The position numbers and the translations under genes were made by a program. This document shows positions 12,938 to 52,591 of a DNA stretch of 64,000 nucleotides, piece after piece; the stretch's first letter is position 1; each line of letters opens with the position of its first letter. Origin of the DNA: Candidatus Omnitrophota bacterium (GTDB taxonomy: Bacteria > Omnitrophota > Gorgyraeia > Gygaellales > Profunditerraquicolaceae); NCBI GenBank assembly GCA_028712175.1, contig JAQTQQ010000003.1:71093-135092 (forward strand). Reading direction: 5' to 3'. The notes beneath the pieces were generated by a model, which worked only from the letters and a program-made list of their open reading frames with translations, ran no database searches and was not told the origin of the DNA.

Positions 12938-12956
12938 TTTGGTCGAAAGCCCAAAG

Positions 12957-13120
12957 TTTATGGTCTATGAAAATTATCATTTAGCTCTTAGCTCATAGAA
13001 AACCATAACATCAACTAAATAGCTGGGGACGCTCTATTTATAAAAATAAATAGTAACGTCCCCGAATTTTTAATTTACATAGATTTTCTACGACCTAAGG
13101 GCTACGAGCTAAGAGCTAAA
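12957..13120. repeat. Palindromic intergenic element with inverted arms built from GAGCTAM heptamers
   Basis: Left arm 12981-13000 is ttagctcttagctcatagaa. Right arm 13084-13119 is ttctacgacctaagggctacgagctaagagctaa. The reverse complement of the left arm matches the right arm. A central hairpin lies at 13025-13063. Confidence 0.5.
13025..13075 (+). terminator. Rho-independent terminator (GGGGACG-stem family)
   Basis: ggggacgctctatttat-aaaa-ataaatagtaacgtcccc hairpin followed by gaatttttaattt. Lies downstream of the lipoyl-domain gene. Confidence 0.5.
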
Positions 13121-13160
13121 AAGCGCTAATATCCAAATATCGGATAAAACCACATTATCA

Positions 13161-13189
13161 TTGACAATAATAGGCTTATAAGGTAAATT
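13161..13189 (+). promoter_or_regulatory. sigma70-type promoter (TTGACA-17-TAAATT)
   Basis: TTGACA at 13161-13166. Spacer is 17 nt. TAAATT at 13184-13189. The HD-GYP gene starts 7 nt downstream. Confidence 0.45.
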
Positions 13190-13195
13190 AAAAAA

Positions 13196-22954: not shown

Positions 22955-24964
22955 ATGATGTTGTGGAATAAATTAGCGGCACAGTTTTTGGTTTTATTAA
23001 CACTTGTTTTAGGGATGTTTGTTTTTGGGTACGCAGAGGATGTGGATTTAGAAAAGATTGTAGTGACTCCGTATCGCTATAGTGAAAGCATGGGAAATAC
23101 TCCCGCCAGCATTTCTGTAATTAATTCCGATGAAATATTTGATTCCGCCTCGTTTAGTACCGTGGGGATCTTATCAGGGTTGCCCGGAGTGGTGGTTAGG
23201 GATTGGTCAGGTAACGGCTCTAAGGCGACTGTAGATATCAGGGGTTTTGGAGAGCAGGCAGGCATGAATGTGCTTGTGTTAATAAATGGCAGGCGGGTAA
23301 ATGAAATTGATTTGTCCGGGACGGACTGGACGCAAATACCTGTGGATCAGATAGAAAGAATTGAGGTTTTAAGGGGCGGGTTTGGCGCTGTGTTATATGG
23401 GGACAACGCTACAAGCGGAGTAATAAATATAATTACAAAGAGAGGCGGACCAGAGCCTTTGTCCACAGAGCTTATTGCTGAATACGGCAGTTATGATATG
23501 AATAAACAGGCAATTAATTTAAGCGGCACAGTCAGTAATTTTAATTATATTTTATCTACCAGCAGAGAAGGCACGCATGGTTATAGGAATAATACTTATT
23601 TTAACGGAGCGGATTTTTCAACCCGGCTTGATTATAAAATAGATGCTACAGATACATTGTTACGTTTTAGCCAGGCCTATAACAAGTCTAATTATGGGCT
23701 TCCCGGCGCGCTTTCTACGGCAAATTTAGCCCGATTCAACCGAAGGTATTCTGCCTACGGCGATGATCACGCTAAAGATATTGATTATAATTTTGTCCTG
23801 GGGTTTGACCAGGCAACAGGAGATTACGGTAAGTTTTCTTTTGATACGTCGTACCGTAAGCGCAGAACTTTCACGAATTTTATCGGGGCAAACGGAGGGT
23901 ATAACCCTATTATTAAATCCAGCATCAATACGATCGGATTTAATCCTAAATATGTATTTGAAAAAACTTTATTTTCATTGAATAATAAAGCGATATTAGG
24001 CTCGGATTTTTACCGCTACGACCTGCAGTCAGATACTTATGATTTGTCAGTAATTAAACAAAGCGATAATTACGTAAGAAAAACCTCTGCCGCTTTATAC
24101 CTGCAGGACGAGCTTAAGCTTAATGAAAGGATTACGCTTACCGCTGGCTATCGCTACGAAAATATTAATTATGATTTTAATTACAACGATTATTCCGCGT
24201 TTTTCCCGAATCCTCCGGTTGATTCAAAGACGGGATTAAATGCGGTTGCTTATAATGTCGGTTTAGCTTACAAGTATGATAATGGAAATTTATTCATTAA
24301 TCATAACAAGGGGTTTAGGTCGCCGGCTGTTGATGAGTATTTTGTCTATGGGGTATTTAATCCTTCGCTTAAAGACCAGGAAAGCAAGAATATTGAGTTT
24401 GGTGTTCAACATAAAATATCCGACCGTTTAAGTTTTGAGTTTTCCGCTTACCTGATGAACCTTAAAAATGAACTCTATTACAATCCCGCCACATTTAATA
24501 ATGAGAATTATGATAAGACGCGACATCAGGGTATTGAGTTTGTATTTAAGGCTGGCCTGCCTTGGAATTTTAAGCTGTCCGGAAACTATACTTTTGATCA
24601 GGCCGTATTTAAAGAAGGCGATTATAAGGATAAAAGCATCCCTATGGTCCCGGAGCATAAGTTTAATTTAAACCTTGCCTATCCAGTTACAAAATATCTT
24701 ACTTGGAGTTTTTCTTCTAATTATTGGAGCAGCAGCTACTTTATCAATGACCAGTCAAACAGGTGGCCAAGGTTAAAGCAGATGTTTACTTTGGATAGCG
24801 GGCTGGTTTTCGGAAAAGATGACTATAAGCTAAGCTGTGGTATTAATAATATTTTTAATGAAAAGTATTATGAATATGGGGTTTGTAACGCTACAAGCGG
24901 CGCGGTAAATTATTACCCGGCTAGCGGAAGGAATTTCTTCATTAAAGCTACCCGCAAGTTTTAG
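22955..24964 (+). CDS. btuB: TonB-dependent outer-membrane receptor (BtuB-like cobalamin receptor)
   Basis: 669 aa with a signal peptide, a TonB box/plug (DLEKIVVTPYRYSE), a 22-strand barrel region and a C-terminal aromatic (...ATRKF). Immediately downstream of the cobalamin riboswitch. Confidence 0.8.
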   Translation: MMLWNKLAAQFLVLLTLVLGMFVFGYAEDVDLEKIVVTPYRYSESMGNTPASISVINSDEIFDSASFSTVGILSGLPGVVVRDWSGNGSKATVDIRGFGEQAGMNVLVLINGRRVNEIDLSGTDWTQIPVDQIERIEVLRGGFGAVLYGDNATSGVINIITKRGGPEPLSTELIAEYGSYDMNKQAINLSGTVSNFNYILSTSREGTHGYRNNTYFNGADFSTRLDYKIDATDTLLRFSQAYNKSNYGLPGALSTANLARFNRRYSAYGDDHAKDIDYNFVLGFDQATGDYGKFSFDTSYRKRRTFTNFIGANGGYNPIIKSSINTIGFNPKYVFEKTLFSLNNKAILGSDFYRYDLQSDTYDLSVIKQSDNYVRKTSAALYLQDELKLNERITLTAGYRYENINYDFNYNDYSAFFPNPPVDSKTGLNAVAYNVGLAYKYDNGNLFINHNKGFRSPAVDEYFVYGVFNPSLKDQESKNIEFGVQHKISDRLSFEFSAYLMNLKNELYYNPATFNNENYDKTRHQGIEFVFKAGLPWNFKLSGNYTFDQAVFKEGDYKDKSIPMVPEHKFNLNLAYPVTKYLTWSFSSNYWSSSYFINDQSNRWPRLKQMFTLDSGLVFGKDDYKLSCGINNIFNEKYYEYGVCNATSGAVNYYPASGRNFFIKATRKF

Positions 24965-25009
24965 GAGTGTTGTTTCTAAGGGCAGACGTTTTTAATTACT
25001 TTATATTTT

Positions 25010-25068
25010 AGGGACTTCCCTGTTTATTTTCTAAAATAAATGGGATCGTCCCTGATTTTCTGTGTTAA
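25010..25068 (+). terminator. Rho-independent terminator (GGGAC-stem family)
   Basis: agggacttccctgtttatttt-cta-aaaataaatgggatcgtccct followed by gattttctgtg. Confidence 0.45.
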
Positions 25069-25077
25069 AATATTAAC

Positions 25078-25776
25078 ATGCTTACTAACCGGATACTTTG
25101 CGCCGCTTTTATTATTTCACTCCTTGCTCACGGGTTTATTTTTCTGCATTTCCCCAAGCTTAGCTCTCTTCCTATTAAACAAAAGGATCAAAAAACGGAG
25201 GTGCGTTATATTAAGGAAGATTTAGAAGTAAAACCTTTGTCTAAGAATAAATCCTTGCTTGATATACAAAAGCCTATTTATCGGCCTGACCCTTTTTTAA
25301 AACTCGATTCTAAAGTTGTTGCCTTTAGAAAAATCCCTCCGCCTTATATCGAGCAGCAAAATAAATCCCCTAAAACACTCTCTAGCGGTTTTTCGGAATT
25401 TCCCAAGCCAAATTTTTCAAGCCCTGACCTTATGATTATAAAAAAGAAAATTTCCCTGCCTGCGATAGAAATGGCTAAAATCGATAACCCGAGCTATATA
25501 AGTTATTATCAGATTGTGCGTGAGAAGATCCGCCGCAGTGCCTATCAGAATTATACTAAAGATGAAACAGGGGAGGTTTATGTTTCTTTTATCATATCTA
25601 GCGATGGCTATATTAAGGCCGTGCGGTTAGTCGAAGAGAAAACAACAGCCCGCGCCTACCTTAAGGATATTGCCTTAAGAAGCGTCAAGGATGCTTCGCC
25701 TTTTCCAAACTTTCCTAAAGAATTAGATTATCCCCAGCTTTCTTTCAATATTATTATCTCATTCGAAATTGAATAA
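25078..25776 (+). CDS. tonB: TonB family energy transducer (C-terminal TonB domain)
   Basis: N-terminal TM anchor, Pro/Lys-rich linker, and a C-terminal roughly 90 aa TonB_C-like domain (...YVSFIISSDGYIKAVRLVEEK...). Confidence 0.6.
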   Translation: MLTNRILCAAFIISLLAHGFIFLHFPKLSSLPIKQKDQKTEVRYIKEDLEVKPLSKNKSLLDIQKPIYRPDPFLKLDSKVVAFRKIPPPYIEQQNKSPKTLSSGFSEFPKPNFSSPDLMIIKKKISLPAIEMAKIDNPSYISYYQIVREKIRRSAYQNYTKDETGEVYVSFIISSDGYIKAVRLVEEKTTARAYLKDIALRSVKDASPFPNFPKELDYPQLSFNIIISFEIE

Positions 25777-25816
25777 AGAATAATTTTAACCTTACTCCAG
25801 GCAGCCTTTTACTATA

Positions 25817-25878
25817 AGCTACGAGCTAAGAGCTACGAGCTAAGAGCTACGAGCTACGAGCTACGAGCTACGAGCTAA
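25817..25878. repeat. Tandem heptamer array (GAGCTAM)x about 9
   Basis: aagctacgagctaagagctacgagctaagagctacgagctacgagctacgagctacgagctaact. Period is 7 nt, alternating GAGCTAC/GAGCTAA. Confidence 0.7.
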
Positions 25879-25882
25879 CTCA

Positions 25883-25911
25883 TTGACACTAATTTAAAAG
25901 AATGGTATATT
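25883..25911 (+). promoter_or_regulatory. Consensus sigma70 promoter (TTGACA-17-TATATT) for rpsU operon
   Basis: TTGACA at 25883-25888. Spacer is 17 nt. TATATT at 25906-25911. rpsU TTG start is at 25949. Confidence 0.55.
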
Positions 25912-25948
25912 ATTAGTCTAAAATTTAATACGAAAGGAGATGATTAGA

Positions 25949-26110
25949 TTGACTCAGGTTGAAATCAAGAAAGACGAATCTTTTGAGTCTGCTTTGCGCA
26001 GGTTTAAGAAAAAGATTGAGCAGGAAGGCATCTTGCGCGAGGTCCGCGACCGCAAACATTACGAAAAACCAAGCGAGCGAAAAAGAAAAAAAGCAAAATC
26101 CAGAAAATAA
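25949..26110 (+). CDS. rpsU: 30S ribosomal protein S21 (short form, TTG start; not in ORF track)
   Basis: Translation [53 protein letters not shown]. The [12 protein letters not shown]...[14 protein letters not shown] core is diagnostic of S21. GGAG lies 9 nt upstream of the TTG. Confidence 0.8.
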
Positions 26111-26112
26111 GC

Positions 26113-26937
26113 ATGGTGGTACAAAACAACCTTCGTAAACCAGTTGTAGCCGGACAATTCTATCCCCGAGATGCAAAAGGGCTTAATAAAGTAATTTCTT
26201 CTTTTGCTGATAAGGAAGGGCAAAAGCGGGATGCAATCGGTGCAATCCTGCCGCATGCAGGGTATGTTTATTCGGGTTTAGTTGCTGCGCAGACTGTTTG
26301 TGGAATAAATATTAAGAATAACGTAGTATTATTAGGCACAAACCATACGGGTTTAGGCCCTGAATTTAGTATCATGCCTTCTGGTATATGGCAGACGCCT
26401 CTGGGAGAGTTGGAAGTCAACGCAGAGTTGTCAAATTTGTTTTTGAATAAATCGGTTAACCTTCGTGCTGACATTTTGGCGCATAAAAATGAGCATTCGT
26501 TGGAGGTAGAGTTGCCGATATTGCAGTATTTTAAAAAAACTTTTAAAATCATTCCCATTGCGATCAGATCTTTAAACCTGGGGTTGCTTAAATCCCTGGC
26601 CAAGGAGTTAGCAGAAGTAATTAACGAAAATAACCTGATAAAGTCAACTGTCTTTATAGCAAGCAGCGACCTGACTCATTACGAGCCTCAAGAAATTGCA
26701 GAAAGAAAAGATGCGTTGGCCATTGATGCAATAGTTGCTTTAGATGAGGATGAATTGGGCAGAGTGGTTAACGATGAGCATATATCCATGTGTGGTTTTG
26801 CTCCTGTTGCGGTGTTAATAAAAACGGCAAAACTTCTGGGCGCCAAAGGTGGGCAGTTAATCAAATATCAAACAAGCGGCCAAGCCAGCGGAGATTTTAG
26901 CAGTGTTGTTGGCTATGCCGGAATCACAATCTATTAA
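26113..26937 (+). CDS. Memo1-like protein (AmmeMemoRadiSam system protein B)
   Basis: 274 aa starting ...PVVAGQFYP..., the hallmark N-terminus of the Memo/AmmeMemoRadiSam B family. Conserved His residues (HAGYVYSG, ...HSLEVELP...). Confidence 0.8.
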   Translation: MVVQNNLRKPVVAGQFYPRDAKGLNKVISSFADKEGQKRDAIGAILPHAGYVYSGLVAAQTVCGINIKNNVVLLGTNHTGLGPEFSIMPSGIWQTPLGELEVNAELSNLFLNKSVNLRADILAHKNEHSLEVELPILQYFKKTFKIIPIAIRSLNLGLLKSLAKELAEVINENNLIKSTVFIASSDLTHYEPQEIAERKDALAIDAIVALDEDELGRVVNDEHISMCGFAPVAVLIKTAKLLGAKGGQLIKYQTSGQASGDFSSVVGYAGITIY

Positions 26938-26940
26938 ATT

Positions 26941-27285
26941 ATGGATGAGATAAAAAAGAAAGTAGATGAAAGCTGGAAGAATCAGGTAGAAAAAGAGAAG
27001 CAGGATACTCCGGTAAAAGAAGGATTTATCCCTCCGGAAGCGGATTTTAAATTTTTTATTACCACATTAACCTTGCAGGCTTCCATTGCCCTCGGGCATA
27101 TTGCGAATCCTTCAACCGGTAAAACCGAGAAAGATCCTGCTCAGGCTAAATTCCTTATTGATACCTTAGCAATGTTGCAGGAAAAAACTAAAGGTAATCT
27201 GACTAAAGAGGAAACTGATCTTTTGGAGAATTTGCTTTATGAGTTAAGGCTGGCGTATCTTGGCAAGGAAGAAAATTTAAAATGA
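26941..27285 (+). CDS. DUF1844-like small protein
   Basis: 114 aa. ...FIPPEADFKFFITTLTLQASIALG... motif is typical of the DUF1844 family. Function unknown. Confidence 0.5.
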   Translation: MDEIKKKVDESWKNQVEKEKQDTPVKEGFIPPEADFKFFITTLTLQASIALGHIANPSTGKTEKDPAQAKFLIDTLAMLQEKTKGNLTKEETDLLENLLYELRLAYLGKEENLK

Positions 27286-27434
27286 TTGATAAGGAGCTAG
27301 TTGAAATATTAGCTTGCCCGGGTTGTAAATCTGACGTTGAACTGATAGGCAACAAGATTGTCTGCAAAAAATGCGGTAAAAAATACCCTCTGCGCGGCGG
27401 AGTACCGGTAATGCTAATTGATGAGGCAGAATGA
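27282..27434 (+). CDS. Trm112/YcaR-like small zinc-ribbon protein (unlisted 50-aa ORF)
   Basis: [50 protein letters not shown]. CPxC...C..C plus the GIPVML motif of the Trm112p/DUF343 family. ATG overlaps the upstream stop, and its stop overlaps the aroQ ATG. Confidence 0.7.
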
Positions 27435-27865
27435 AAAAAGTCCTGGTTATTCATGGCCCAAATTTAAACCTTTTAGGTGTCAGAGAACCTGATGTTTACG
27501 GGCGGATAACCTTAGATAAGATAAATCAGATGCTTAAAATCCAGGCTAAGCAGTCTAAAGTTAGTTTGGTCATTAAGCAATCCAACCACGAAGGCCCTAT
27601 TGTTGATTTGATCGGAAAGGCGAAAAAAAATAAATTTGACGCTATTTTGATCAATCCTGCCGCCTATACCCATACAAGCATAGCTGTGCGTGACGCTGTG
27701 GCAGCATGCGGGTTGATTGTGGTAGAAGTCCACCTCTCTAATATTTATTCCCGCGAGGAGTTTAGGCATAAATCTTTAATTAGCCCGGTAGCTAGCGGTA
27801 CAATTATGGGCTTTGGTGCTAAAAGTTACGGTTTAGGTTTGGCCGCCATTCTCGATTTAATTTAA
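27431..27865 (+). CDS. aroQ: 3-dehydroquinate dehydratase type II
   Basis: [22 protein letters not shown]...NHEG... signature. 144 aa. Confidence 0.9.
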
Positions 27866-51919: not shown

Positions 51920-52591
51920 ATGAAAAAGATATGTTTGTTGTTTGGTTGCATTGTTGCTTGTTTTTTTCTAATTGGCGTTTGCGCGGTATGCGCTGAAGGT
52001 GAGGAGTCTTCTGGTGTTTTAAAGAAGCAACCCAGCGGCACTGATTGGAAGCAGGAATTAATTTCTGATAAACAGCAAATTAACCAGCAGCGCCAGCAGA
52101 TAAAACAAAATGCGCAGGAGGCAAGAACGCAGGAACAACAGCTAAAAGAGCAAATAAAATCAGCAGTTGATTCAGGCGATACGAAATTGGCCAGAGAGCT
52201 AAGAGAGCAGTTAAGGGCTACACACATGGCAAATGTGAAGCAGATGGTTCAGGACAAGGATGCTCTAAAGACCGATATGAAAGATTTTAGGAGTGATGTT
52301 AGAAAAGCGCGCCAGGATGGCGTATTGCCTCCAAAGAGAGACAAAGACAATAATCCTCCGGGGCCTAAAGGTGGACCGGGAACTAACTGGGAGAATAAAC
52401 CCGGGCCGCAAGGCGGACCAGGCGCCAGCCCGGATAGAAAGCCGCGGTTAGACAAAGACAATAATCCTCCGGGGCCTAAAGGTGGACCGGGAACTAACTG
52501 GGAGAATAAACCCGGGCCGCAAGGCGGACCAGGCGCCAGCCCGGATAGAAAACCTATTGGTAGGCCACGCGCTGCAGCGCCTAGAAGATAA
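51920..52591 (+). CDS. Secreted Gln-rich coiled-coil protein with two identical 37-aa Gly/Pro-rich repeats
   Basis: Signal peptide, Q/E-rich helix, then 2x DKDNNPPGPKGGPGTNWENKPGPQGGPGASPDRKP. Confidence 0.5.
   Translation: MKKICLLFGCIVACFFLIGVCAVCAEGEESSGVLKKQPSGTDWKQELISDKQQINQQRQQIKQNAQEARTQEQQLKEQIKSAVDSGDTKLARELREQLRATHMANVKQMVQDKDALKTDMKDFRSDVRKARQDGVLPPKRDKDNNPPGPKGGPGTNWENKPGPQGGPGASPDRKPRLDKDNNPPGPKGGPGTNWENKPGPQGGPGASPDRKPIGRPRAAAPRR
52336..52557. repeat. Perfect 111-nt direct tandem duplication inside CDS
   Basis: The stretch gacaaagacaataatcctccggggcctaaaggtggaccgggaactaactgggagaataaacccgggccgcaaggcggaccaggcgccagcccggatagaaa occurs twice. The two copies are offset by 111 nt. Confidence 0.8.

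Follow-up and report, generated by a model that had tools for sequence, protein, structure and literature searches.

A length-polymorphic heptanucleotide array beside the rpsU promoter of an uncultured Omnitrophota bacterium, probably a near-neutral microsatellite

Why does a tract of head-to-tail heptanucleotides stand directly 5' of the promoter of a ribosomal protein gene, and does it do anything there? The question is raised by one intergenic spacer in the 64,000-nucleotide stretch of Omnitrophota DNA analysed here (the window). The initial annotation had described about nine tandem 7-nt units (GAGCTAC/GAGCTAA) lying 4 nt 5' of TTGACA-17-TATATT, and had proposed that they act as an UP-element-like or transcription-factor binding array, or that they form a slipped-strand, copy-number-variable tract modulating the strength of the promoter of an rpsU-Memo operon. 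Using a combination of methods (repeat, promoter and terminator scans, folding, alignment of orthologous loci and comparison of independent assemblies), we find that the tract is an intergenic heptanucleotide SSR, and we propose that it is probably near-neutral and hypermutable.

The array and the promoter it adjoins

The described layout was confirmed, with the correction that the first unit is AAGCTAC and not GAGCTAC. The features of the locus are as follows.

25078 to 25776, + strand: TonB C-terminal-domain gene, 5' of the array (ORF and domain annotation)
25816 to 25878, + strand: heptanucleotide microsatellite of 9 units (sequence reading, Tandem Repeats Finder, pattern scan)
25879 to 25882, + strand: CTCA linker from the last unit to the -35 hexamer; the junction GAGCTAA-CTCA-TTGACAC is common to the related species L128 and L239
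25883 to 25888, + strand: -35 hexamer TTGACA (promoter scan), invariant in 19 orthologous upstream regions
25903 to 25911, + strand: extended -10 element TGgTATATT (promoter scan); in all 19 regions the TG is unchanged, as are the hexamer's T, A and T positions
25933 to 25939, + strand: Shine-Dalgarno sequence AAAGGAG, part of the invariant block GAAAGGAGATGAT
25949 to 26110, + strand: rpsU (ribosomal protein bS21, PF01165), 53 aa from a TTG start
26113 to 26937, + strand: Memo-like gene (AmmeMemoRadiSam system protein B, PF01875), 2 nt past the rpsU stop codon

The array, 63 bases long, reads AAGCTAC, GAGCTAA, GAGCTAC, GAGCTAA, then four GAGCTAC and a last GAGCTAA, i.e. after AAGCTAC the order of the GAGCTAA (A) and GAGCTAC (C) units is A C A C C C C A. 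It is located in the intergenic spacer 25777-25948, within the 106 bp that separate the tonB-like gene from the conserved promoter. Tandem Repeats Finder reported it at 25817-25877 (period 7, 8.7 copies, 92% matches, no indels, score 108) as the top-scoring short-period tandem repeat in the window. A two-unit pattern (GAGCTAMGAGCTAM, up to 2 mismatches) matched the window 12 times versus 1.31 expected, a number reached in none of 100 shuffles, and AGCT at a 7-nt period matched 8 times versus 0.25 expected. The A+T content of the array is 31/63 bases (49%) versus about 59% for the window, and it holds no run of three or more A or T. An assembly artefact is excluded by the presence of the array in independent assemblies from NCBI, ENA, JGI and Logan.

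The rpsU promoter (TTGACA at 25883-25888, a 17-nt spacer, TG at 25903-25904 and TATATT at 25906-25911) scored 11/12 with the TG, and was the top site found by the promoter scan within 24500-27500. Transcription would start near 25918, about 7 nt past the -10 element, which would give rpsU a repeat-free 5' UTR of about 31 nt and place the array at about -102 to -40. The start codon of rpsU differs by gene caller, being either the TTG at 25949 (53 aa) or the in-frame ATG at 25940 (56 aa). The ATG abuts GGAG and the TTG lies 9 nt past the Shine-Dalgarno sequence (25933-25951); the TTG is nearly invariant, occurring in at least 90% of the aligned sequences of the 19 regions. The genes 3' of the Memo-like gene are DUF1844, Trm112, aroQ, pepP and efp.

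A protein-guided metagenome scan yielded 80 loci with relatives of Memo, 24 of which carry rpsU directly 5' of it, and 19 rpsU upstream regions were aligned. The invariant positions are TTGACA, an AAA in the spacer, the TG of the extended -10 element, the T, A and T of its hexamer, and GAAAGGAGATGAT, a block that is conserved beyond the plain needs of a ribosome-binding site and might therefore be an S21 autoregulatory feature. The promoter scan, the PF01165 and PF01875 domains and this alignment together confirm the sigma70 promoter and the rpsU-Memo pairing of the initial annotation. No conserved sequence was found 5' of the -35 hexamer or of the array in the 19 orthologous regions. About 15 relatives have the same promoter and no repeat, their upstream tonB stop codon lying 15-30 nt before the -35 hexamer; the array is thus dispensable, and is to be regarded as a lineage-specific insertion or expansion beside an older promoter rather than as a part of it. 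By this comparison the rpsU promoter is real, and is predicted to work independently of the array. A metagenome scan with the exact 36-nt promoter sequence, aimed at more alleles, returned 0 matches.

On its 5' side, the array follows the end of a unit comprising a cobalamin riboswitch (RF00174, 22654-22834, 75 bits), a TonB-dependent receptor gene (22955-24964) and the TonB C-terminal-domain gene. The promoter/terminator scan detected no terminator between the last of these and the array, so that rpsU may also receive B12-dependent read-through transcription. The Rfam scan of the window found only the cobalamin riboswitch and a tRNA-Gly, and nothing at the array.

Three other observations concern the window at large. 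Almost all genes of the window (1-64000) and of contig L241 are on the plus strand, with a positive GC skew throughout. The window starts at the end of the S10-spc-alpha cluster (secY, adk, map, infA, rpmJ, rpsM, rpsK, rpsD, rpoA, rplQ). Lastly, a perfect 111-bp tandem duplication (52339-52551, 1.9 copies, 100% identical) lies inside the ORF 51920-52591, where it doubles 37 residues rich in Pro and Gly (DKDNNPPGPKGGPGTNWENKPGPQGGPGASPDRKP); the N-terminus of the encoded protein is hydrophobic and resembles a signal peptide. The duplication appears to be recent and may be length-variable as well.

Length alleles, related arrays and the wider occurrence of the unit

Copies of the locus were recovered by exact-protein look-ups in independent assemblies, and the full-length array was present in four contigs (L001-L004). 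With C standing for GAGCTAC-type and A for GAGCTAA-type units, these contigs carry three alleles.

9 units, C A C A C C C C A (CACACCCCA): window, NCBI MAG (L001), ENA assembly (L002)
8 units, C A C C C A C A (CACCCACA): Logan SRR27370451 (L003)
6 units, C A C A C A: JGI 3300037067 (L004)

The flanks of the 9-, 8- and 6-unit alleles are 99.4-100% identical, and more than one event separates the alleles, because expansion of the C-type units took place at different positions. As no 31-mer is repeated within any of the three alleles, an assembly at k=31 should pass uninterrupted through a single allele. Four k=31 Logan contigs from three samples (L005, L006, L007 and L240) end inside the array; the ends of L006, L007 and L240 are exactly the k-mers where the known alleles diverge, and the end of L005 would call for an allele, absent from those observed, in which five or more C-type units follow one another. 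These ends suggest mixed alleles within samples, low coverage being an alternative account. The slipped-strand, copy-number-variable tract of the initial annotation was therefore borne out, strains having 9, 8 or 6 units between near-identical flanks and contigs ending where the alleles can be told apart. A change of length between near-identical strains is the behaviour of an ordinary hypermutable bacterial microsatellite. In keeping with the definition of an SSR, the array consists of head-to-tail units within the range of 1-11 nt, is longer than composition predicts, varies by whole units in close strains, is intergenic, and has a unit that recurs at a second locus.

This second locus (12939-13195) emerged from a search for (GAGCTAM)n beyond the rpsU spacer, which showed that the motif is not unique; it recurs, short and imperfect, at 12981-13119. 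The features are as follows.

12981 to 12994, - strand: left arm, 2 perfect GAGCTAA units (pattern scan), invariant in 6 contigs
13025 to 13071, + strand: intrinsic-terminator-like hairpin GGGGACG...CGTCCCC with a T run, between the heptamer arms (inspection, folding)
13088 to 13119, + strand: right arm, about 4.5 degenerate units (CTACGAC, CTAAGGG, CTACGAG, CTAAGAG, CTAA; Tandem Repeats Finder, pattern scan)

The two arms pair around the terminator (-51.5 kcal/mol, z -5.2, region 12939-13195). No copy-number variation was seen at this locus, which is identical in the 6 contigs, as would be expected of short or imperfect tracts if more perfect units mean greater mutability. A promoter-like site, TTGACA-17-TAAATT (13161-13189), lies 41 nt 3' of the right arm. 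Since the -10 hexamer of this site ends 6 nt short of the start codon (ATG, 13196) of an HD-domain gene (PF13487/PF01966), that gene may have a leaderless mRNA. About 16 kb more of the same contig held no further heptamer arrays, and the motif occurs in only 2 of about 16 spacers in about 80 kb.

The rpsU array itself lacks an inverted partner arm in the genome of the window, and no U-tract lies 3' of it. Its self-fold via the AGCT cores (DNA, -13 kcal/mol, z -1.3; RNA, z -1.35) resembles that of shuffles. In a test for REP/BIME-like elements, the unpartnered rpsU array thus stood at z -1.3, and the arms of the second locus and of the related species L128 and L130 at z -3.1 to -5.2.

Related species show the rpsU spacer in several states. 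L239, the S21 protein of which is identical, with synonymous differences in the DNA, has about 1-2 units (TAAGCTA-aaat-GAGCTAA) and the same CTCA-TTGACAC junction. L128 and L129 (Memo 78% identical) have TTAGCTC-type units on one side and TAGCTAT, GAGCTTT, GAGCTAT and GAGCTAA on the other; L128 and L130 (Memo 75%) have 3-4 units plus an inverted arm. The inverted pair of the L128 type folds at -39.3 kcal/mol (z -4.1) and the similar arms of L130 at -31.7 kcal/mol (z -3.1), in both cases between the tonB stop codon and the -35 hexamer. L147 (Memo 66%) carries eight NNAGCTG units directly 5' of the -35 hexamer, and is tentatively placed among array-less relatives by a single-gene neighbour-joining tree that has no support values. 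Within the 338 kb of related loci, the rpsU spacer is the one place with AGCT-period-7 arrays, and is almost the sole non-coding DNA. The array-less relatives L149, L131 and L132 have ordinary hairpins in the stretch that runs from the upstream gene to the rpsU -35 hexamer, such as the perfect 12-bp stem GTAGAGAGGCAA-aatc-TTGCCTCTCTAC of L149, and a hairpin at the rpsU spacer is therefore a recurrent feature. Judging from these sequences, the simplest history would be that a hairpin or proto-unit beside the -35 hexamer turned periodic, and that the arm was then expanded by slippage. As for a MITE, inspection of the inverted arms by eye showed neither a target-site duplication nor an internal sequence common to the loci.

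The unit itself is widespread. A scan for exact (GAGCTAM)3 in one genome per species found more than 119 stretches in many phyla among the matches listed, which include Alcanivorax, Halomonas, Acidobacteriota, Gemmatimonadota and Bacteroidia, often beside other heptamer arrays. With the selected unit excluded, 873 kb of these listed matches contained 59, 9, 20, 80, 18 and 4 other arrays of periods 4, 5, 6, 7, 8 and 9, respectively; the numbers rise to a sharp peak at period 7, the arrays of which comprise about 74 different units, and an AGCT core is present in only 9 of the 80. In viral contigs, GAGCTAM was found at 6 loci versus 12, 5 and 0 for the composition-matched GAGTCAM, GGACTAM and GACGTAM. 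These two controls argue that the more than 119 matches reflect the general abundance of heptamer SSRs and not GAGCTAM itself. A specially conserved cross-phylum GAGCTAM motif was accordingly rejected, composition-matched heptamers being comparable and the matching genomes holding about 74 other units.

In unrelated phyla (L024, L046, L118 and others), GAGCTAA arrays stand beside arrays of mutated units or of the reverse complement, for example followed by TAGCTCT repeats. The arrays of L024, L046 and L118 show the same mutating and re-amplifying of units and the same inverted pairs. In Alcanivorax (L010, L023, L043, L058, L067, L087, L091), (GAGCTAC)n reaches about 19 units and is followed at many loci by a conserved motif of about 35 nt (GCTYGATTGGATArrG...GAAAAAGTTCCC); this conserved motif makes the array appear to travel with a dispersed element.

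Explanations of the array

The array is thus an intergenic heptanucleotide SSR, a member of a known over-represented class the unit sequence of which differs between genomes; what is new here is the phylum, Omnitrophota, and the place beside a housekeeping promoter. As to its role, we favour the reading that it is a near-neutral hypermutable heptanucleotide SSR, which we consider probable. By analogy with the established behaviour of SSRs, the array would lengthen and shorten in 7-bp steps via slipped-strand mispairing at replication, the variation in length being what we observed. The related-species series suggests that it probably originated by amplification of one GAGCTAA unit, or of one arm of a hairpin, adjoining the -35 hexamer in an ancestor. 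Most likely, the tract would be a by-product of mutation that a compact genome tolerates in one of its few non-coding spacers. Since the region from about -40 to at least -81 consists of array DNA in all alleles, and there is no conserved upstream element to re-phase, little or no effect on rpsU transcription is expected. With, in addition, an A+T content of 49% without tracts and the analogy of nadA (PMC2791445), any functional effect of the array would be small.

Several facts count against near-neutrality. The GAGCTAM heptamer occurs in two spacers 12.7 kb apart, and at both loci of the window a plus-oriented array lies 5' of a TTGACA promoter. That exact 14-mers should arise at two spacers by chance is very improbable, a hint that some process or factor acts on this sequence specifically. 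Moreover, heptamer arrays at the rpsU spacer in two branches of the tree, of the GAGCTAM type and of the NNAGCTG type of L147, could reflect selection rather than drift.

The regulatory roles proposed by the initial annotation fared less well than its slippage claim. An UP-element-like array finds no support in view of the 49% A+T content, the lack of A- and T-tracts and its absence at the same promoter in about 15 related species. An array of transcription-factor sites is at odds with a 7-bp period, which is not a helical repeat, and with distances to the -35 hexamer of 4 nt here versus 41 nt at the second locus. As the array is not AT-rich and its DNA occupies about -40 to at least -81 in every allele, both readings are left unsupported. 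A helically phased direct-repeat array like those of OmpR/PhoB, the SARP heptamers or iterons was also rejected, given the contiguous 7-bp period and the unfixed distance to the -35 hexamer. The suggested modulation of promoter strength by copy number is a priori weak, because the polymerase sees almost the same upstream DNA in every allele. In its fuller form, this explanation would make the array a contingency locus that acts as a tuning knob, copy number altering DNA geometry or alpha-CTD contacts and thereby giving graded, reversible levels of S21 (and Memo). It draws on the closeness of the array to the -35 hexamer (4 nt), on polymorphism between strains and probably within samples, on arrays kept or re-arisen at the rpsU spacer in several related lineages, and on the precedent of an SSR 5' of the -35 hexamer of nadA in Neisseria (PMC2791445). 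The proximal contacts are, however, nearly identical in all alleles, no conserved distal element lies 5' of the tract to be re-spaced, and most relatives use the same promoter without an array. Furthermore, the nadA effect depends on operators that flank the tract and is minor without the repressor (PMC2791445), and a housekeeping ribosomal protein gene is atypical of contingency genes. We thus regard such tuning as unlikely.

The folds of the related loci lend themselves to a different account, according to which inverted pairs at the 3' end of the upstream operon terminate transcription or stabilise the upstream transcript, and the rpsU array is a relic or variant of such a REP-like or terminator-like inter-operon hairpin, namely its expanded, surviving right arm, with a present role as RNA hairpin or insulator. 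The folding inverted arms of L128 and L130, the second-locus arms that enclose an intrinsic terminator, the ordinary hairpins of array-less relatives (e.g. the 12-bp stem of L149) and the 70-75 inverted pairs formed by the heptamer repeats of Xanthomonas all speak for it. Yet the rpsU array is unpartnered, folds no better than shuffles and is followed by no U-tract; the account explains the origin better than the present function, and we deem it quite unlikely. It is highly improbable, in our opinion, that the array, like the second locus, serves as a binding array for a DNA or RNA protein dedicated to recognising the heptamer, be it an activator, a nucleoid protein or a factor with a post-transcriptional effect on the read-through RNA. 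One unit does occur at two spacers in the same orientation, 5' of TTGACA promoters in both cases, and for other bacteria the same has been proposed on the ground that their heptamers are genome-specific (PMC4679880). However, the array is not conserved 5' of the orthologous promoters, its distance to the -35 hexamer varies, its contiguous 7-bp period does not align successive sites on one helical face, the motif is confined to 2 of about 16 spacers in about 80 kb, and composition-matched heptamers are as frequent or more so in two of the three viral-contig comparisons (12 and 5 versus 6 loci, the third giving 0). More remote still is the combined idea that a lineage-specific factor recognises GAGCTAM and that the length polymorphism sets a heritable, reversible S21 dosage.

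As a near-neutral microsatellite, the tract still provides a strain-resolving, fast-evolving locus in an uncultured Omnitrophota species, and explains the short-k assembly breaks at the rpsU spacer. It offers a clear birth-and-growth series of a heptamer microsatellite, from 1-2 units, through 4 units plus an inverted arm, to 6-9 units, and with it the unexplained excess of 7-nt repeats in the spacers of bacteria extends to one more phylum. The array would carry greater weight if rpsU transcription responded to the number of units. Translation initiation is affected by the dosage of S21 and, to our knowledge, no phase-variable control of a core ribosomal protein has been described. If the S21-dosage reading were true, Omnitrophota would comprise subpopulations with different ribosome composition and translation-initiation stringency, and a core ribosomal protein would be subject to a contingency locus in a nanobacterium that lives in the environment and possibly depends on a host.

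Comparison with known systems

UP elements are A/T-rich, with A- and T-tracts. Like the UP elements of rRNA and ribosomal-protein promoters, the array lies directly 5' of the -35 hexamer, at about -40 to -60; it differs from them in its 49% A+T, in its lack of tracts and in not being conserved in orthologous promoters.

The TAAA tract of nadA in Neisseria meningitidis is also an SSR of strain-variable copy number located 5' of a sigma70 -35 hexamer (PMC2791445), and our locus agrees with it in position and polymorphism. It does not agree in the flanking regulatory sites: the nadA effect needs the NadR operators and an IHF site that flank the tract (PMC2791445), whereas here no flanking element is conserved and the upstream flank is the 3' end of tonB. 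Of the SSRs located 5' of a -35 hexamer, that of nadA has been studied best. When the flanking repressor is inactivated, its variants differ only slightly in transcription (PMC2791445). The two tracts differ further in unit length (7 nt versus 4 nt) and in the gene they precede (a ribosomal protein gene versus a surface adhesin gene).

Similarly to the array, the (ATCTTTC)n repeats of hmw1A/hmw2A in Haemophilus influenzae have a 7-nt unit near a promoter (PMC12721329). Their effect is graded rather than on/off and involves a hairpin that includes a repeat arm (PMC12721329). In contrast to these repeats, which lie in the transcribed 5' UTR and form an RNase III-processed hairpin, the array is 5' of the promoter and would be transcribed solely by read-through from tonB. 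The TAACTGA direct repeats of marine Beggiatoaceae, Cyanobacteria and Bacteroidetes share with it a genome-specific intergenic heptamer in 2-6 or more copies (PMC4679880). They too occur 5' of ribosomal protein genes, and the one unit is found in unrelated phyla (PMC4679880), in which it resembles GAGCTAM. They are located in the 5' UTR, a few nucleotides from start codons that have no nearby ribosome-binding sites, whereas the array is 5' of the -35 hexamer of a gene with a canonical Shine-Dalgarno sequence. A 5'-UTR SSR of the hmw or TAACTGA type does not match the array, the 3' end of which lies at about -40 relative to a promoter that is conserved across 19 relatives.

The STRR heptamers of cyanobacteria differ from the array in unit sequences and lineage. 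Their abundance in cyanobacteria is far above that of GAGCTAM here. Like the array, those of Calothrix PCC 7601 and of heterocystous cyanobacteria are tandem and dispersed in non-coding DNA, and have no function assigned to them (PMC4692102).

The closest likeness is with the long heptanucleotide SSRs, such as GGGAATC in Xanthomonas and GGGGAYT in Nostoc, described by Mrazek et al. 2007 (summarised in PMC4679880 and PMC4692102). By these summaries, heptanucleotide repeats are the most abundant class of long SSRs in most genomes, and polymerase slippage has been proposed for them. Unlike the Xanthomonas and Nostoc units, GAGCTAM is not G-rich and cannot form a G-quadruplex; and unlike Xanthomonas, which has about 185 GGGAATC arrays per genome with extensive length variation and 70-75 inverted pairs, the present genome, of the phylum Omnitrophota, has only 2 GAGCTAM loci in about 80 kb. 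The array shares with the long heptanucleotide SSRs head-to-tail 7-nt intergenic units, a genome-specific unit at several loci, variation of length and unit sequence among close relatives, and frequent inverted stem-loop pairs.
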